Assembly (NCBI RefSeq): GCF_002854065.1
Contig: NZ_CP024147.1
Reading direction: 5' to 3' (one strand)
From: Escherichia coli
GTDB lineage: Bacteria > Pseudomonadota > Gammaproteobacteria > Enterobacterales > Enterobacteriaceae
DNA length: 64,000 nt
Shown one piece after another: positions 1 to 21,044 of this stretch (its first letter is position 1; every line of letters begins with the position of its first letter). Under the pieces are notes generated by a model, which was not told where the DNA came from, made no database searches, and saw nothing but the letters and a program-made list of their open reading frames with translations. Both the position numbers and the translations under genes were made by a program.

Positions 1-1525
1 TTTCACGCCCAGAGAAAGCAGCGTCAGCAGAATGACAATCGCTTTCTGTTCAAACCAGGAGAGCACCAGCGACAGCGGCAGATCGTTCACACCACAGCCC
101 AGTTTTTCTGCCAGCGTTACCGCCAGAATAATCGCTGAGTAAGCATCGTTACATTGACCTGCATCTACCAGACGCGGCAGACCTTCGATATCGCCAAACT
201 CAAGTTTGTTAAAGCGATATTTACCACAGGCGAGGGTCAGGATCAGGCAGTCATCCGGCACGCTGGTGGCGAAATCGGTGAAGTAGTGGCGCTCGCCGCG
301 TGCGCCGTCACAGCCACCAAGCAGGAAGATATGACGCAGTTTTTCACGGCTCACCAGATCAATCAGCGTATCCGCTGCGCCAAGCAGCGTCTGGCGGCCA
401 AAGCCCACGGTGATCAGGTGCGGAATTTCGCTGTACGGGAAGCCTGCCATTTGTTGCGCCTGGGCAATGACCGCAGAGAAATCTTCGCCATCCAGATGAC
501 GCACACCCGGCCAGCCAACGATGCTGCGGGTCCAGATACGATCGTCATAAGCGCCTACGGTTGGGTCGATGATGCAGTTCGAGGTCATCACGATGGGGCC
601 AGGGAAACGAGCGAATTCCACTTGCTGATTCTGCCAGCCGCTGCCGTAGTTACCGACCAGATGCTTGAATTTACGCAGCTCCGGGTAGCCATGCGCAGGC
701 AGCATTTCGCCGTGGGTGTAGACATTAACGCCCGTGCCTTCGGTCTGTTCCAGCAGGTTGTAGAGATCTTTGAGATCGTGACCGGAAATCAGGATGCATT
801 TACCCGCCGTCGCTTTGACGTTGACCTGGGTTGGCGTCGGGTGACCGTATTTACTGGTTTCGCCTGCATCCAGAATGCTCATCACTTTGAAGTTCATCTG
901 GCCGATTTCCATTGAACACTCAAGAAGCGCGTTCATATCGGCAGGCCAGGTCCCCAGCCACGCCATGATTTTATGGTACTGGGCATAAATATCATTGTCG
1001 TATTGACCGAGAACGTGTGCGTGTTCCATATAGGCCGCCGCACCTTTCAGACCATACAGGCACAGCAGACGCAGGCCGAGAATGTTTTCGCCAATCGCCG
1101 CTTTATCTTTGTTAGGGGTAAATTCTGCTGCCTGACGTTGCAGTTCGCCGAGATCGTCGCTCACCAGTTGCAGGTCAGCCATCGGGTTATCGACGCGGGC
1201 GTTGGCATCTACAGTCAGGCATTGTGCTTTCAGCGCCTCGCGCAAGGCAATCGCTTCACGAGCGTAGCCGACAATACGCGGAGAATCGAAGTTAACGTTG
1301 GTCAGGGTTGAGAAAAAGGCACGTGGCGCGAAGCTGTCGACATCGTGGTTGATGATGCCGTATTCACGCGCTTTTACCGCCCAGGCAGAAAGCCCTTGCA
1401 GCGCCGCGATGAGTAAATCCTGAAGGTCAGAGGTTTCCGCCGTTTTACCACACATCCCCTGCGCGTATGAGCAGCCGTTTCCTGCCGGAGTACGGATAGT
1501 TTGTTCACATTGCACACAAAACATG
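1..1525 (-). CDS. hcp: hybrid-cluster protein (hydroxylamine reductase), 3' end truncated by window edge
   Basis: Minus-strand translation from the ATG at 1525 reads [27 protein letters not shown]..., matching Hcp as I recall it; the plus-strand ORFs 154..915 and 973..1311 are antisense artefacts. Confidence 0.9.
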
Positions 1526-1667: not shown

Positions 1668-2567
1668 TTACGCAGAGAAAAAGGCGATGAGGATCGGCAC
1701 TAACAGGCTAAGAATAAAACCGTGAACAATTGCCGCCGGGACCATATCCAGCCCGCCAGTACGTTGAAGAACGGGCAGGGTGAAATCCATCGACGTCGCA
1801 CCGCATAAGCCCAGTGCGGTAGAGCGGCTGCGGCGAATCAGCCCAGGGATCAACATAATTGCAATCAGCTCACGGGCCAGATCATTAAAAAACGCCGCGC
1901 TCCCGATTACCGGACCAAAAGATTCGGTCAATAAAATACCGGAAAGAGAATACCAGCCGAAACCAGAGGCCATTGCCAGCGCGGTATTGATGGGTAGATC
2001 AAGAATAAAGGCGTTAATTAAACCACCAATTAATGAACTGGCAACCACCACCACGGCGACAATCATTCCCCGGCGATTAAGGACAATCTGCTTTAAGGTC
2101 ATGCCATTATTGCGCAACTGAATACCGACGAGGAAAAGTAGCAGAATTAACGTGTATTCACTGGCTTCGGTCGCGTGTTGTAAGAAAGCCAGTCCACTCA
2201 GGCCAATGGCAAAACCAATCACTACTACGCCGCACAGTTTTAGCGACTCAAGCGCCATCGCAATACGCGACGGGAGTTTTTCTTGCTGATGGTGGTTGCG
2301 CCACGGCAGACCGCGCTCCAGCCATATAAGGGCGGCAATATTACACAGTAAAATAACGGTAATACTGACGGCAGAATAATGCAGAATCGCCAACAGGTTA
2401 CTGGCGAGGTTATCGAGAAACGCCAGACTGATACCCATAAAAAAGAGAATAAGGTAAACCATCCAGCTTAATAGCTGATTAATAACTTTTAACGCAGCTT
2501 GTTGGCGAAGCGGAATGAGGTAACCCACAATCAGGGGAACCAGAATGATTAACAGCCCAGAAAACAT
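1668..2567 (-). CDS. lysO: lysine exporter LysO (YbjE), inner-membrane protein
   Basis: 299-aa ORF, strongly hydrophobic, starting MFSGLLIILVPLIVGYLIPL; matches YbjE/LysO by recall and position. Confidence 0.85.
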   Translation of the reverse strand: MFSGLLIILVPLIVGYLIPLRQQAALKVINQLLSWMVYLILFFMGISLAFLDNLASNLLAILHYSAVSITVILLCNIAALIWLERGLPWRNHHQQEKLPSRIAMALESLKLCGVVVIGFAIGLSGLAFLQHATEASEYTLILLLFLVGIQLRNNGMTLKQIVLNRRGMIVAVVVVASSLIGGLINAFILDLPINTALAMASGFGWYSLSGILLTESFGPVIGSAAFFNDLARELIAIMLIPGLIRRSRSTALGLCGATSMDFTLPVLQRTGGLDMVPAAIVHGFILSLLVPILIAFFSA

Positions 2568-2761
2568 GAAAACCCAGCCCTTGCAAAGAAAGAAGTCGAA
2601 ATGCGCGATGACACACTACTGAAAGCGGAAGGACGAGTAAAGTTGCAATTAAAAGGAAATGTTATGCATCAGAGGGGGATTTTTAATTCTATATGAGTGT
2701 TTAGCATTGTTGCGCTCCTTTCATGTGCAATGCCATATAAAGCCACTGGCGCAGGGAGCGC

Positions 2762-2919
2762 GCAGGGGGCGGCCAGTCGCCGCCGCCCCCTGCACCCCCG
2801 GGCTCTGGCGAACAAAATCGCCGCTGCGCGGTACCTTCAGCTTATCCCCTTCGGCTACCGGGTCGGGCGCGAGGTAACGTCCTGTAAGACGCGCCCTCAG
2901 CCCACATCCATGTGGGCTG
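2762..2919. repeat. GC-rich palindromic intergenic element (two perfect inverted repeats)
   Basis: GCAGGGGGCGGC-N8-GCCGCCCCCTGC at 2762..2793 and CAGCCCACAT-CC-ATGTGGGCTG at 2898..2919, in a stretch far more GC-rich than the flanking DNA; possibly a dispersed REP/boxC-like repeat. Confidence 0.3.
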
Positions 2920-3359
2920 CCCCGGCCTTCAGGGAACGCCTCGGCGATTTTGACGCCACCAACATCCGTGCGGTTTGTAACGTCGAAGATAAAACAACCA
3001 GGGCAGATAAAATGCCAATGCTAATTAATTACGTTTTTCCAGCAGGGTCCGGTAAATCAGACCACCGATAATGCCGCCGACAATTGGCACCACCCAGAAG
3101 AACCACAGTTGTTCTAATGCCCAGCCGCCCTGGAAGATGGCAACCGCGGTGCTGCGCGCCGGGTTAACAGAAGTGTTAGTCACCGGAATACTGATTAAGT
3201 GAATCAGGGTTAAGGCCAGACCAATAGCGATCGGCGCAAAACCTGCCGGAGCGAATTTGTCGGTTGCGCCGTGGATCACCAACAGGAAACCTGCACTCAA
3301 TACCAGTTCAACTACCAGCGCGGAAAGCATGGAATAACCGCCTGGTGAATGCTCGCCAT

Positions 3360-3368
3360 AACCGTTAG
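3360..3368. repeat. IS1 target-site duplication (left copy, AACCGTTAG)
   Basis: A 9-bp direct repeat AACCGTTAG immediately flanks both IS1 ends (3360..3368 and 4137..4145). Confidence 0.85.
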
Positions 3369-3423
3369 GGTGATGCTGCCAACTTACTGATTTAGTGTAT
3401 GATGGTGTTTTTGAGGTGCTCCA

Positions 3424-3699
3424 GTGGCTTCTGTTTCTATCAGCTGTCCCTCCTGTTCAGCTACTGACGGGGTGGTGCGTAACGGCAAAAGCACTGCCGG
3501 ACATCAGCGCTATCTCTGCTCTCACTGCCGTAAAACATGGCAACTGCAGTTCACTTACACCGCTTCTCAACCCGGTACGCACCAGAAAATCATTGATATG
3601 GCCATGAATGGCGTTGGATGCCGGGCAACCGCCCGCATTATGGGCGTTGGCCTCAACACGATTTTCCGCCATTTAAAAAACTCAGGCCGCAGTCGGTAA
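3424..3699 (+). CDS. insA: IS1 InsA (transposition inhibitor / N-terminal part of InsAB')
   Basis: 91-aa [46 protein letters not shown]... matches canonical IS1 InsA. Confidence 0.95.
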
Positions 3700-4121
3700 C
3701 CTCGCGCATACAGCCGGGCAGTGACGTCATCGTCTGCGCGGAAATGGACGAACAGTGGGGATACGTCGGGGCTAAATCGAGCCAGCGCTGGCTGTTTTAC
3801 GCGTATGACAGGCTCCGGAAGACGGTTGTTGCGCACGTATTCGGTGAACGCACTATGGCGACGCTGGGGCGTCTTATGAGCCTGCTGTCACCCTTTGACG
3901 TGGTGATATGGATGACGGATGGCTGGCCGCTGTATGAATCCCGCCTGAAGGGAAAGCTGCACGTAATCAGCAAGCGATATACGCAGCGAATTGAGCGGCA
4001 TAACCTGAATCTGAGGCAGCACCTGGCACGGCTGGGACGGAAGTCGCTGTCGTTCTCAAAATCGGTGGAGCTGCATGACAAAGTCATCGGGCATTATCTG
4101 AACATAAAACACTATCAATAA
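3618..4121 (+). CDS. insB: IS1 InsB reading frame (expressed as InsAB' transposase by -1 frameshift)
   Basis: 167-aa frame ...[64 protein letters not shown]... matches IS1 InsB; it overlaps the insA 3' end in the -1 frame. Confidence 0.9.
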
Positions 4122-4136
4122 GTTGGAGTCATTACC

Positions 4137-7684: not shown

Positions 7685-8800
7685 ATGAAAAAGCGGAAAA
7701 CCGTGAAGAAGCGTTACGTTATTGCGCTGGTGATAGTCATCGCCGGACTGATTACGTTATGGAGAATTCTTAACGCACCCGTGCCGACTTATCAGACACT
7801 GATTGTGCGCCCCGGTGATTTACAGCAAAGCGTGCTGGCGACCGGAAAGCTGGACGCGCTGCGTAAGGTTGATGTGGGCGCGCAGGTCAGCGGTCAGTTG
7901 AAAACACTGTCGGTGGCGATTGGCGATAAAGTAAAAAAAGACCAGCTTTTAGGGGTCATTGATCCTGAACAGGCTGAAAACCAGATCAAGGAGGTCGAAG
8001 CAACGCTGATGGAGCTACGCGCGCAGCGGCAGCAGGCGGAAGCGGAGCTGAAACTGGCGCGGGTGACGTATTCCCGTCAGCAACGTCTGGCACAAACGCA
8101 GGCGGTTTCACAGCAGGATCTCGACACCGCCGCGACGGAGATGGCTGTGAAACAGGCGCAAATTGGCACCATTGACGCGCAAATCAAGCGCAATCAGGCT
8201 TCTCTCGATACGGCTAAAACCAATCTCGATTACACTCGCATCGTTGCCCCGATGGCCGGGGAAGTCACGCAAATCACCACTCTGCAAGGCCAGACGGTGA
8301 TTGCCGCACAACAAGCACCGAACATTCTGACGCTGGCAGATATGAGCACCATGCTGGTAAAAGCGCAGGTTTCTGAAGCGGATGTAATCCACCTGAAGCC
8401 GGGGCAAAAAGCCTGGTTTACGGTACTTGGCGATCCACTGACGCGCTACGAGGGGCAAATCAAGGATGTACTACCGACGCCGGAAAAGGTTAACGACGCT
8501 ATTTTCTATTACGCCCGTTTTGAAGTCCCCAACCCCAATGGTTTGCTGCGGCTGGATATGACTGCGCAAGTGCATATTCAGCTCACCGATGTGAAAAATG
8601 TGCTGACGATCCCTCTGTCGGCGTTAGGCGATCCGGTTGGCGATAATCGTTATAAAGTCAAATTGTTGCGTAATGGTGAAACACGCGAGCGTGAAGTGAC
8701 GATTGGCGCACGTAACGATACCGATGTTGAGATTGTCAAAGGGCTGGAAGCGGGCGATGAAGTGGTGATTGGTGAGGCCAAACCAGGAGCTGCACAATGA
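7685..8800 (+). CDS. macA: macrolide export membrane-fusion protein MacA
   Basis: Start chosen at [16 protein letters not shown] (371 aa), with a membrane anchor and coiled-coil/HlyD-like sequence; its stop overlaps the macB start. Confidence 0.9.
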
Positions 8801-11040: not shown

Positions 11041-11362
11041 GCTTCGACATCCTTCGCAAATCTTATACAAGTAAGATGGAATAAACCGGGGTCAGAGAGG
11101 GGGCTGTTCAAAACCTCGCCAACTCTAGAAATACAATTTAGAGAATTAGGGCGAGCCGTCAAGCATTTGACAGGGGACAAGGGGCAGGTATGAATCAAAA
11201 ATTTGAAGCAGTTAACGCTATTGACAGGAATGTGACAGATGTCGCTGATGCCAACGATAGATGATAGTTATCTATCATGTGGAGTAGATTGGTCAGGCAA
11301 ATAAGCTCTTGTCAGCGGCAGGGCGTTCTGCCGATAACCGTAACCGAAGATGATAACTGACA

Positions 11363-11713: not shown

Positions 11714-13990
11714 ATGCTCAATCAAGAACTGGAACTCAGTTTAAATATGGCTTTCGCCAGAGCGCGCGAGCACCGTCATGAGTTTATGACCGTCGAGCAC
11801 TTGTTACTGGCGCTGCTCAGTAACCCATCTGCCCGGGAGGCGCTGGAAGCGTGTTCTGTGGATTTGGTTGCGCTCCGTCAGGAACTGGAAGCCTTTATTG
11901 AACAAACCACACCCGTTCTGCCTGCCAGTGAAGAGGAGCGCGACACACAGCCGACGCTGAGTTTTCAGCGTGTACTGCAACGTGCGGTCTTCCATGTCCA
12001 GTCCTCCGGTCGCAATGAGGTTACCGGTGCAAACGTTCTGGTCGCTATCTTTAGCGAACAGGAGTCGCAGGCGGCATATCTGTTGCGTAAACATGAAGTC
12101 AGCCGTCTCGATGTGGTGAACTTTATCTCTCATGGCACGCGTAAAGACGAGCCGACACAGTCTTCTGATCCTGGCAGCCAGCCAAACAGCGAAGAACAAG
12201 CTGGTGGGGAGGAACGTATGGAGAATTTCACGACGAACCTGAATCAGCTTGCGCGCGTGGGCGGAATCGACCCACTGATTGGTCGTGAGAAGGAGCTTGA
12301 GCGTGCTATTCAGGTTCTCTGCCGTCGCCGTAAAAACAACCCGCTGCTGGTGGGGGAATCTGGTGTTGGTAAAACTGCGATTGCGGAAGGTCTTGCCTGG
12401 CGAATTGTTCAGGGCGATGTGCCGGAAGTGATGGCTGACTGTACAATTTACTCACTCGATATCGGTTCTCTGTTAGCGGGCACAAAATATCGCGGCGACT
12501 TTGAAAAACGTTTTAAAGCGTTGCTCAAGCAGCTGGAGCAGGACACTAACAGCATCCTGTTTATTGATGAGATCCACACCATTATCGGTGCGGGGGCAGC
12601 GTCTGGTGGTCAGGTCGATGCGGCTAACCTAATCAAACCGTTGCTCTCCAGCGGTAAAATTCGTGTAATTGGTTCGACAACCTATCAGGAGTTCAGCAAC
12701 ATTTTCGAGAAAGACCGTGCTCTGGCGCGTCGCTTCCAGAAAATTGATATTACTGAACCGTCGATCGAAGAAACTGTTCAAATCATCAATGGCCTGAAAC
12801 CGAAGTATGAAGCACACCACGACGTGCGTTATACCGCAAAAGCGGTGCGTGCGGCGGTAGAGCTGGCGGTGAAATACATTAACGATCGTCATCTGCCGGA
12901 TAAAGCCATTGATGTTATCGACGAAGCGGGCGCTCGCGCACGCCTGATGCCGGTAAGCAAACGCAAGAAAACCGTTAATGTGGCGGATATTGAGTCCGTG
13001 GTGGCCCGTATTGCACGCATTCCAGAGAAGAGTGTTTCTCAGAGTGATCGTGATACCCTGAAAAACCTCGGCGATCGCCTGAAAATGCTGGTCTTCGGTC
13101 AGGATAAAGCCATTGAGGCGCTGACTGAAGCCATTAAGATGGCGCGTGCAGGTTTAGGTCACGAACATAAACCGGTCGGTTCGTTCCTGTTTGCCGGTCC
13201 TACCGGGGTCGGGAAAACAGAGGTGACGGTACAGCTTTCGAAAGCTTTGGGCATTGAGCTTCTGCGCTTTGATATGTCCGAGTATATGGAACGCCATACC
13301 GTCAGCCGTCTGATTGGTGCGCCTCCGGGATACGTTGGTTTTGATCAGGGCGGTTTGCTGACTGATGCGGTCATCAAGCATCCACATGCGGTGCTGCTGC
13401 TGGACGAAATCGAGAAAGCGCATCCGGACGTGTTCAATATTCTGTTGCAGGTGATGGACAACGGTACGCTGACCGATAACAACGGACGCAAAGCGGACTT
13501 CCGTAACGTGGTGCTGGTGATGACCACTAACGCCGGGGTACGGGAAACTGAGCGCAAATCCATTGGTCTTATCCACCAGGATAACAGCACCGATGCGATG
13601 GAAGAGATCAAGAAGATCTTTACACCGGAATTCCGTAACCGTCTCGACAACATTATCTGGTTCGATCATCTGTCAACTGACGTGATCCATCAGGTGGTGG
13701 ATAAATTCATCGTCGAGTTGCAGGTTCAGCTGGATCAGAAAGGTGTTTCTCTGGAAGTGAGCCAGGAAGCGCGTAACTGGCTGGCCGAGAAAGGTTACGA
13801 CCGGGCAATGGGCGCACGTCCGATGGCGCGTGTCATCCAGGACAACCTGAAAAAACCGCTTGCCAACGAACTGCTGTTTGGTTCGCTGGTGGACGGCGGT
13901 CAGGTCACCGTCGCGCTGGATAAAGAGAAAAATGAGCTGACTTACGGATTCCAGAGTGCACAAAAGCACAAGGCGGAAGCAGCGCATTAA
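11714..13990 (+). CDS. clpA: ATP-dependent Clp protease ATPase subunit ClpA
   Basis: 758 aa from [19 protein letters not shown]; two AAA+ modules (GESGVGKT and GPTGVGKT Walker A motifs). Confidence 0.95.
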
Positions 13991-20617: not shown

Positions 20618-21044
20618 TCAAATTCTCCCGTCATTATCACCTCTGCTACTTAAATTTCCCGCTTTATAAGCCGATTAAATGATGAATAAACGCCCCTGGT
20701 AATGAATATCTGGCATGTTGTACTAAAAATCGATGTTTTGCTTTGACAATCCCCTGGTGTTTTGCGAAAACATTCGAGGAAGAAAAAAAACAGTATTCTT
20801 ATATGCGCATAACCATGCATGTAAATACCATGTTTACCGTGCTAGTGAAATCTACGTATGGCGTGGACAGACGCCATTCGTGATGTCGATAGCTGCCACA
20901 AGGCAACGGTCTTCTCACCGTAGACCCAGGCATTGCGCGCCGTGAATCTTCATGATTTCGGTCTATCGTGACGGGTAGCGACTCTGAACAGTGATGTTTC
21001 AGGGTCAGACAGGAGTAGGGAAGGAATACAGAGAGACAATAATA

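Follow-up and report, generated by a model that had tools for sequence, protein, structure and literature searches.

The spacer between lysO and aqpZ of Escherichia coli harbors a GC-rich, strongly palindromic block. We analyzed this block in a 64-kb stretch of contig NZ_CP024147.1 (hereafter the window; coordinates refer to it unless another sequence is named). The closest described elements are the TRIP1 repeats, which were first listed by Rudd 1999 (Res Microbiol 150:653). Li et al. 2024 (Genes 15:236) describe TRIP1 repeats of 146-273 bp and 62-65% GC that occur in 1-5 copies per genome and fall into five locus-specific types, a to e, at lysO-aqpZ, putP-efeU, dusC-mdtQ, alx-sstT and copA-ybaP. 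The lysO-aqpZ element is TRIP1a, for which K-12 coordinates are given in that paper. When TRIP1a recombines with TRIP1c, the terminus region of 1.3 Mb is inverted (Li et al. 2024).

Independently, the name RRS ("replication risk sequences") was given to the same lysO and dusC sequences (Pham et al. NAR 2023, 2024; Kusi-Appauh et al. 2026 preprint; hereafter the RRS papers). There, RRS are 222-bp repeats, each at a distance of about 650 kb from dif; one occupies 168-389 bp upstream of lysO and the other 58-281 bp downstream of dusC. On the lagging-strand template, a G-quadruplex (G4) is formed by the motif GGGGGTGCAGGGGGCGGCGG (Pham et al.). In vitro, RRS is a block to Pol I, II and IV, and in vivo it lowers M13 (Pol III) replication to about half, with an orientation bias; the 2026 preprint (Kusi-Appauh et al.) summarizes this as impeding Pol I-IV. 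In K-12, the lagging strand is left with gaps that reach up to 2 kb and become loaded with RecA and SSB; the RecA/SSB peaks in ssGap-seq follow RRS to new sites, and gap formation was also seen at the single-molecule level. At least one member of the pair RRS-lysO/RRS-dusC is conditionally essential in K-12, and removal or inversion of RRS alters genome-wide supercoiling. When RRS was inverted by engineering, the in vivo RecA/SSB peak was lost, while gaps in vitro persisted at reduced frequency (RRS papers).

By sequence comparison, the GC-rich palindromic block in the lysO-aqpZ spacer of the window is TRIP1a, which is also RRS-lysO, and so is an element already known. The identity is settled by the alignment to K-12 together with an exact match to the 20-mer G4 motif. 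TRIP1a of K-12 MG1655 shares 92.7% identity with the window over 275 bp, in the same spacer, on the opposite strand and with different immediate flanks, and K-12 TRIP1c shares 92.6% over 270 bp. A profile built from 34 family members matches 2969-2710 on the minus strand (E = 9e-82). The motif GGGGGTGCAGGGGGCGGCGG, which is the sequence criterion for RRS, has a single occurrence in the window, on the minus strand at 2799->2780. Li et al. 2024 assign TRIP1 repeats by BLAST similarity to K-12 TRIP1a, b or c over >80% of length; the window element has this length of similarity, lies at the type-a locus (lysO/ybjE-aqpZ), has 65.2% GC and folds stably. Its parts are as follows, with arms read on the strand given.

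2707..2976, G-rich "sense" strand minus: core of TRIP1a/RRS-lysO, from the alignment to K-12 and the family profile
2799->2780, minus: published G-quadruplex-forming motif of RRS, 5'-GGGGGTGCAGGGGGCGGCGG-3', exact match
2762-2773/2782-2793, both strands: P4, a perfect GC hairpin of 12 bp with an 8-nt loop, 100% complementary; the G4 motif overlaps the 5' arm as read on the minus strand
2898-2907/2910-2919, minus: P2, a hairpin with 10-nt arms, 100% complementary, 2 nt between arms; read on the minus strand as CAGCCCAC-AUGGAU-GUGGGCUG
2865..2896, minus: P3, a hairpin GGGCGCG...UUAC-AGGA-CGUUA...CGCGCCC with GGA in its loop, from the fold and covariation
2937..2952, minus: 5' arm (CAAAAUCGCCGAGGCG) of P1, the outer stem around P2 and P3, from the inverted repeat and covariation
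2813..2828, minus: 3' arm (CGCAGCGGCGAUUUUG) of P1, from the same evidence
2821-2831, minus: small hairpin CCGC-GCA-GCGG, listed with the 3' arm of P1, from the fold
2755..2761, minus: 5' arm GCGCUCC of the 3'-terminal helix P5, pairing with 2712-2718
2712..2718, minus: 3' arm GGAGCGC of P5, Shine-Dalgarno-like and yet one strand of a helix by covariation
2796..2813, unstranded: first copy of a direct repeat (CCCCGGGCTCTGGCGAAC), spacing 124
2920..2937, unstranded: second copy of that repeat (CCCCGGCCTTCAGGGAAC), spacing 124
1668..2567, minus: lysO, start codon 140 bp from the element
3025..3368, minus: 3' fragment of aqpZ, stop codon 48 bp from the minus-strand 5' end of the element

A first-pass annotation of the window, made from the letters alone, had pointed to a GC-rich block at 2740-2935 with two perfect inverted repeats. 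The block has 70% GC over that span, and both repeats, P4 and P2, are exactly as described (12 nt with an 8-nt loop; 10 nt with 2 nt between); the flanking genes, lysO on the minus strand and aqpZ with its stop at 3025 on the same strand, had also been named correctly. Measured over 100 bp at a time, the GC fraction is 0.64-0.74 across 2700-2949 and 0.38-0.47 in both flanks. The discrete element, whose boundaries 2707 and 2976 are the limits of homology in the alignment with K-12, exceeds the annotated span; its 270 bp have 65.2% GC, as against 40.1% in the remainder of the spacer. The annotation had also lacked the long-range pair 2813-2828/2937-2952 (16 nt, 88%), which forms P1. Its suggestion of a dispersed intergenic repeat of the boxC/REP kind holds as to dispersal and fails as to family, which is TRIP1/RRS. 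The copy search it had proposed returned matches to a 301-bp stretch in 5,425 of the 5,426 complete E. coli genomes (BLAST), with a median of 3 places per genome and a maximum of 8-10; by this median the element is a repeat. Self-matching of the palindromes does not account for the median of 3, since local BLAST against K-12 gives one high-scoring segment at the locus. The other places were attributed to the TRIP1b, c, d and e loci; for K-12, this was confirmed at TRIP1b and TRIP1c. No second copy was found in the 64-kb window by sequence or family-profile searches.

Folding was evaluated for both strands. The minimum free energy of the minus strand was -145.4 kcal/mol (z = -4.7) and that of the plus strand -131.2 kcal/mol (z = -3.5); none of 200 dinucleotide shuffles folded as well on either strand, and DNA parameters gave the same fold (z = -4.75). 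An alignment of 34 distinct full-length copies from six genera (273 columns) yielded in RNAalifold 66 consensus pairs in 11 helices, and 19 of the 66 show double-sided changes which keep the pair. Paired cells amount to 98.7% against 93.1% in shuffles and compensatory cells to 156 against 50, with 0 of 500 shuffles reaching the observed values; in these figures the copies are related, the cells are not independent events, and the structure is derived from the same alignment. When the partners were slid by 1-3 columns as a control, at most 5 covarying pairs and about 40% pairing were obtained.

The changes are distributed over several helices. In helix 1, the outer stem, 7 of 12 pairs are changed on both sides, with variants from AAAAU/AUUUU to AACAU/AUGUU and CUGAAU/AUUCUG, and the pair 34:143 is C-G in 16 copies and U-A in 16. 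P2 pair 64:73 is evenly divided, with 17 A-U and 17 G-C copies, and copy L045 has several further compensatory changes in P2; at P3 pair 93:102 there are 18 A-U and 16 G-C copies. P5 changes from GCGCUCC/GGAGCGC to GCGCUCU/AGAGCGC in four Enterobacter copies. Most pairs of P4 are uninformative, as the helix is mostly fixed by the pattern used for the search. Its basal pair, outside the pattern, covaries (G-C in 20 copies, A-U in 10), and the dusC-locus copy of O157:H7, which the pattern did not retrieve, has two double compensatory changes in P4 (GGAGGA...TCCTCC). The hairpin loops show no such freedom: the P2 loop is CAUGGAUG or CAGGGAUG in all 34 copies (A[U/G]GGAU), and GGA is invariant in the loops of both P2 and P3. 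All 34 copies also keep the unpaired run of five G upstream of P4, which fits the G4 proposal, and the two runs of at least three G and the two GG tracts of the G4 motif. A single-strand fold of about 270 nt, not only a G4, kept by compensatory substitutions across six genera, is strongly supported by the alignment. Assignment of the fold to one strand, or to RNA as against single-stranded DNA, was attempted by comparing G-U with A-C cells; at 20 versus 11 the asymmetry is too weak for a decision.

The direct repeats at 2796-2813 and 2920-2937 bracket a recurrent deletion of about 124 bp. The lysO-locus allele of NZ_CP148327.1 lacks exactly the interval between them, and K-12 TRIP1b at putP has a similar internal deletion of 125 bp (Li et al. 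2024). The two-hairpin domain enclosed by P1 seems to be lost recurrently. NZ_CP148327.1 is a 42-kb "plasmid" with hcr-hcp-lysO-aqpZ-ybjD, where the deletion allele lies at 2836-3156.

The orientation of the window copy differs from that in K-12. On the plus strand of the window the GC skew is +0.043, with positive values in 7 of 8 bins (8 kb each), and most coding sequence also lies on this strand, which is therefore the leading strand. The element has its G-rich strand on the minus strand, so that it serves as the leading-strand template. The element is inverted relative to K-12, with its G-rich strand co-directional with aqpZ and lysO. The lagging-strand-template placement described for RRS is thus absent from the window; it belongs to the K-12 arrangement and its in vivo activity rather than to the sequence family. 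Replication orientation was taken only from skews over 35-64 kb. The skew of the 2-14-kb flanks was rejected for this purpose: it was negative in 26 of 35 loci and its sign flips between neighboring Klebsiella loci, and thus it reflects local gene orientation.

The dusC locus behaves similarly. In O157:H7 strain G5295 the dusC-yohP copy (20652-20913 of the extracted locus) has its G-rich strand opposite to dusC, and the dusC strand is the local plus strand with a GC skew of +0.037 over 35 kb. Judging from these alignments, O157:H7 is in the non-K-12 orientation at both the lysO and the dusC loci, with G5295 itself read at dusC and the lysO allele taken from O157:H7 records that match the window. 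E. coli E69 is likewise listed for the orientation dimorphism at dusC. Copies of different allele classes differ by 8-10%, which is far above the divergence of the E. coli core genome. Homologous exchange between the lysO and dusC loci swaps flanks and cannot flip the element in place.

The family extends beyond E. coli. An exact-pattern scan of one genome per species, with the 3' half of the GC hairpin as the pattern, gave 42 loci, including 7 and 6 copies in two Kluyvera species, 6 in Klebsiella pneumoniae ATCC 13883, 4 in a Klebsiella metagenome-assembled genome (MAG), 4 in Enterobacter sp. ENT03 and 2 in Pseudocitrobacter, as well as copies in several Escherichia species. Many of these loci lie at contig ends, that is, at assembly breaks. 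The copies are found mostly at the 3' ends of genes: at 30 of 42 loci the gene downstream is convergent, and at 20 of 33 the gene upstream is co-directional with the copy. The same element occurs at unrelated loci such as dusC, putP, alx, copA, ybiT and rimO. Matches in a plasmid collection were found in Klebsiella at 82-86% identity, among them one mislabelled K. pneumoniae chromosome with 13 places, so that the TRIP1 range of K. pneumoniae is 6 to 13 copies. Carriage by plasmids or phages was considered and rejected, as the phage collection gave no matches to the element and the inspected "plasmid" matches bear chromosomal genes (ybiT, rimO and others) and are all typed as non-mobilizable.

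Some related sequences were encountered beside these copies. Three loci (L035, ~1687-1737; L036, ~11760-11814; L037, ~11121-11180), from an Enterobacterales MAG and Ewingella americana, have only the G-run and the GC hairpin (~50-60 nt) in common with TRIP1 and have GAATTT/GAAGTT tandem repeats alongside; they may represent a different element built on the same hairpin. The MAG contig JAFAEO010000008.1 (2.8 kb) bears two TRIP1 copies head-to-head about 300 bp apart, 1-133 (-) and 429-685 (+), and the 5' flank of one of them matches the E. coli dusC locus. Contig NZ_JABWSY010000051.1 (583 bp, coverage 0.7), labelled Bacillus sp., is a chimera of the two K-12 loci, with a 5' flank identical to that of lysO (TRIP1a) and a 3' flank identical to that of putP (TRIP1b), a full-length profile match and no internal deletion; it almost certainly represents E. 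coli contamination of a Bacillus assembly.

For the element in the window, the best-supported account is probably the published one at the DNA level, in which the element folds on unwinding and stalls polymerases. In K-12, as shown in the RRS papers, the G-rich strand folds into the G-quadruplex and hairpins once unwound at the fork and blocks DNA polymerases I-IV. Where the lagging strand has this strand as its template, a gap that can reach up to 2 kb is left and loaded with SSB and RecA. In the orientation of the window, gaps in vivo would be weak or absent, and the stalling activity is expected to be attenuated.

Several observations weigh against this account. Firstly, the published in vivo gap signal is absent for inverted RRS, so the activity of the window copy may be weak or absent. 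Secondly, the inverted allele is common: 891 of 5,432 records (~16%), O157:H7 included, match the window at >=95% identity, and Li et al. 2024 counted 3,448 forward and 1,255 reverse copies of TRIP1a, so that 1255 of 4703 are reversed. The dusC locus is dimorphic as well, with 1,998 of 5,425 genomes matching the non-K-12 arrangement in one piece. Moreover, the six copies of K. pneumoniae ATCC 13883 lie within 0.83-2.18 Mb on strands -,+,+,-,+,-. Since this interval can contain no more than one replication switch point, at least two of these copies have the G-rich strand as the leading-strand template. The orientation polymorphism and the mixed strands in K. pneumoniae together argue that lagging-strand placement is not what selection maintains. 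Thirdly, P4 sequesters half of the G4 tracts and covaries, and the structure under selection may be the hairpins instead of the G4; such sequestration suggests that hairpin and quadruplex would compete. Lastly, the invariant GGA of the hairpin loops is left unexplained by a pure model of folding and blocking.

The conserved loops bring in a second known motif. In a permissive Rfam scan, the full-length model of TwoAYGGAY (RF01731, CsrB/RsmB clan, gathering score 43 bits) aligned to 2813-2958 of the minus strand with 28 bits (E = 0.02-0.06). K-12 TRIP1a scored 30.6 bits, and the Klebsiella copies gave no match at E < 1. Both the window element (28.0) and K-12 thus stay below 43 bits, and by the Rfam criterion the window element is not a member of TwoAYGGAY; its central domain resembles that motif weakly. 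Loop 1, AUGGAU, fits AYGGAY, while loop 2, AGGAC (AGGGAU/C in most copies), has GGA and not AYGGAY. Matches to MIR1437, mir-3622 and PyrR208 in the same scan (E = 0.7-6) were rejected as generic GC-hairpin matches.

A diverged paralogue resembles TwoAYGGAY more closely. In Enterobacter sp. ENT03 and Kluyvera, the repeat unit measures about 650 bp, and its additional 330 bp are non-coding and constitute a paralogue which we call U. Read on the opposite strand, U has the TRIP1 architecture, with an outer stem GAAATCGGTG/CACCGATTTC, a hairpin with an AGGGAU loop, a second hairpin, G-runs and a G-rich terminal hairpin. U scores 41.9 bits against TwoAYGGAY in Kluyvera (E = 4e-5) and 33 bits in Enterobacter, and the TRIP1 sequence profile detects it over nearly the full length (E = 5e-7, Pseudocitrobacter). 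In Kluyvera, Pseudocitrobacter and Enterobacter, U is always head-to-head with a TRIP1 copy, so that the G-rich strands of the two lie on opposite strands. The copies of U in these genera are listed below.

L049, 2433-2670, minus: U
L050, 788-1026, minus: U
L019, 2189-2428, plus: U
L034, 5641-5880, plus: U
L023, ~8148-8209, minus: U

TRIP1/RRS, U and TwoAYGGAY may therefore be related, as far as these alignments go. A wider proposal is that the three are branches of one GC-rich, structured and dispersed family of Enterobacteriaceae and gut bacteria, in which selection acts on the sequence-specific binding of a partner by the folded G-rich strand through its GGA loops and stalling is a by-product. 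We regard it as an unlikely proposal. If it held, the partner could be a protein that binds RNA, for instance CsrA on a transcript, or an enzyme that binds single-stranded DNA, and binding of such a partner would explain why both orientations relative to replication exist in nature.

Less likely still, the element could be primarily a selfish, non-autonomous repeat resembling miniature inverted-repeat transposable elements, whose fold and loops are recognized by a recombinase or transposase acting in trans, with stalling and rearrangements as side effects. Several copies per genome in species-specific subfamilies, as in K. pneumoniae, the two Kluyvera species and Enterobacter sp. ENT03, would suit such a repeat, and so would the copies at assembly breaks, the preference for spacers at gene 3' ends with convergent downstream genes, the two orientations with different immediate flanks at one locus, and allelic copies far more different than the core genome. 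The same intergenic site can also hold other repeats: in the alx-sstT spacer, K-12 has boxC-like repeats (GGGAGAGGGTCGGGGTGAGGG...) where other strains have TRIP1d (L054 2047-2444 versus L053 753-1369). However, no terminal inverted repeats, target-site duplication or clean empty site were found, no associated transposase gene was seen at the examined loci, and the extra part of the 650-bp unit is a second non-coding element. The lack of phage matches and the chromosomal, non-mobilizable nature of the inspected "plasmid" matches also speak against it, and the copy at each E. coli locus is stable over thousands of genomes. The 5' junction TTAC, common to two E. coli lysO alleles, is not found in the Klebsiella copies. 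Two more specific insertion histories were tried and rejected. An IS200/IS605-type insertion 3' of TTAC would suit the E. coli lysO alleles (TTAC|AAAC), but the Klebsiella, Kluyvera and Enterobacter copies lack this junction and the homology runs further upstream. A target-site duplication could not be read from the K-12 alx-sstT spacer as an empty site, because it holds the boxC-like repeats.

Two further features of the locus were noted. A perfect 9-bp inverted repeat, TTAGCATTG / CAATGCTAA at 2701-2709 and 3016-3024, brackets the element, abuts the aqpZ stop and has no counterpart in K-12; it may be a relic of the local inversion or a chance match. A copy of IS1 (768 bp, 3369-4136) interrupts aqpZ, and comparison with E. 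coli strain 100416 shows a target duplication of 9 bp. In Pfam, the open reading frames (ORFs) at 3424-3699 and 3618-4121 match the InsA domains and the DDE transposase domain of IS1, and the broken aqpZ frame leaves only a 3' ORF of 101 aa.

Improbable by a shade more is the reading of the element as a structured RNA of the minus strand, either in the aqpZ 3' untranslated region and lysO leader or from its own promoter, in which the two GGA loops within the closing stem bind a CsrA-like protein as a sponge or a cis-regulator. The end-to-end alignment of the TwoAYGGAY model on the minus strand and the GGA that stays invariant in 34 of 34 copies while the stems covary speak for it. The minus strand also folds 14 kcal/mol better than the plus strand, and in the window this sense strand is co-directional with aqpZ and lysO. 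Dubey et al. 2005 reportedly obtained RUACARGGAUGU as the consensus of CsrA from systematic evolution of ligands by exponential enrichment, and ACAUGGAUGU and, in K-12, ACAGGGAUGU appear similar to it.

On the other hand, the TwoAYGGAY score is below the gathering threshold, the Klebsiella copies do not match, the G-U excess is weak, and neither a promoter-like site to drive the minus strand nor a terminator-like site was found. The orientation to neighboring genes is variable as well, TRIP1a and TRIP1b of K-12 being antisense to both neighbors and the upstream gene being co-directional in just 20 of 33 loci. In K-12, TRIP1c lies in sense 44 nt after the dusC stop. In the portion of the gene-based, K-12-only integrated table of CsrA crosslinking and immunoprecipitation by Potts et al. 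2017 that was examined, dusC and ybjE/lysO carry no positive flag (No/No/No/No, NS). Similarly, the Term-seq supplements examined list no 3' ends at dusC, lysO or aqpZ. No support was thus found in these sources for action of the element at the RNA level, although the negatives are all weak. The first-pass annotation had offered a structured RNA as one possibility; a conserved single-strand structure is borne out by covariation, whereas the known activity is at the DNA level and neither transcript nor CsrA evidence was found in the sources above.

Finally, it is very improbable that the palindromes are a lysO operator or an unusual terminator ending the aqpZ transcript: their position between the aqpZ stop and the lysO start and the perfect dyad symmetry of both hairpins would allow it, but neither hairpin is followed by a T-run on either strand, the same element sits at unrelated loci, K-12 has its own canonical aqpZ terminator besides the element, and alleles with the element flipped or internally deleted leave the lysO-adjacent sequence unchanged. 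About 100 bp adjoining the lysO start are identical in alleles with either orientation or with the center deleted. From this we infer that the element is neither a terminator nor a lysO operator. The annotation was right that the hairpins are not canonical terminators, as a search for a stem followed by a T-run gave 0 sites in 2400-3300 on either strand; its idea of a protein-binding palindrome regulating lysO finds no support, given the constancy of the lysO-adjacent sequence and the absence of a flag for ybjE/lysO in the CsrA table.

Coding readings were set aside too. A leader peptide behind a Shine-Dalgarno sequence was considered, as AAGGAGCGCAAC followed by ATG opens ORFs of 12 aa and 9 aa in two alleles. 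It was rejected because the Klebsiella copies have no ATG there and GGAGCGC covaries with GCGCUCC; the short ORFs after GGAGCGC are not conserved between copies. ORFs of 124 aa, 72 aa and 48 aa span the element, inside a non-coding repeat that is found in both orientations.

Taken together, the GC-rich palindromic block is a catalogued repeat with published, experimentally supported activity. What is new here is the inverted copy in the window, the inversion at both loci in O157:H7, a multi-copy family of mixed orientation, the covarying fold, the invariant GGA loops and the resemblance to TwoAYGGAY and U. The orientation polymorphism, the multi-copy genomes of mixed orientation and the 66-pair fold with its invariant loops bear on the debate over the purpose of RRS. 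They suggest that placement of a G4 on the lagging-strand template is not the whole story. A strain with the window allele offers a natural "inverted RRS" for asking whether gap formation is the selected function.

Among known systems, REP elements are about 35 bp long with hundreds of copies and boxC elements about 56 bp, both being short single palindromes. The element shares with REP/BIME and boxC that it is GC-rich, palindromic and intergenic, prefers gene 3' ends and can occupy the same spacers. It differs as a multi-helix unit of 270 bp with 1-5 copies per E. coli genome and few BLAST places, those inspected being TRIP1 loci. The TwoAYGGAY motif (Weinberg et al. 2010) likewise has a long closing stem around two adjacent hairpins, with AUGGAU in the first loop. 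The window element differs in its second loop, AGGAC, is far more GC-rich than the model consensus, and goes beyond the motif in an additional G-run, hairpin P4 and helix P5. The pilE G4 of Neisseria gonorrhoeae, cited by the RRS authors as the one earlier bacterial analogue, is alike as a G-quadruplex that prompts gap formation or recombination; its sequence is unrelated, it is a single G4 without a conserved surrounding fold, and it serves antigenic variation. The E. coli TRIP1 repeats agree with the window copy in locus, length (266-273 bp), GC (62-65%) and stable fold, and from K-12 TRIP1a it differs only by its "reverse" allele class and 7% divergence, otherwise in nothing of substance. 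Compared with RRS in MG1655, whose G4 strand is the lagging-strand template, the window copy presents this strand as the leading-strand template, and its allele is the natural equivalent of the engineered "inverted RRS" of the RRS authors.

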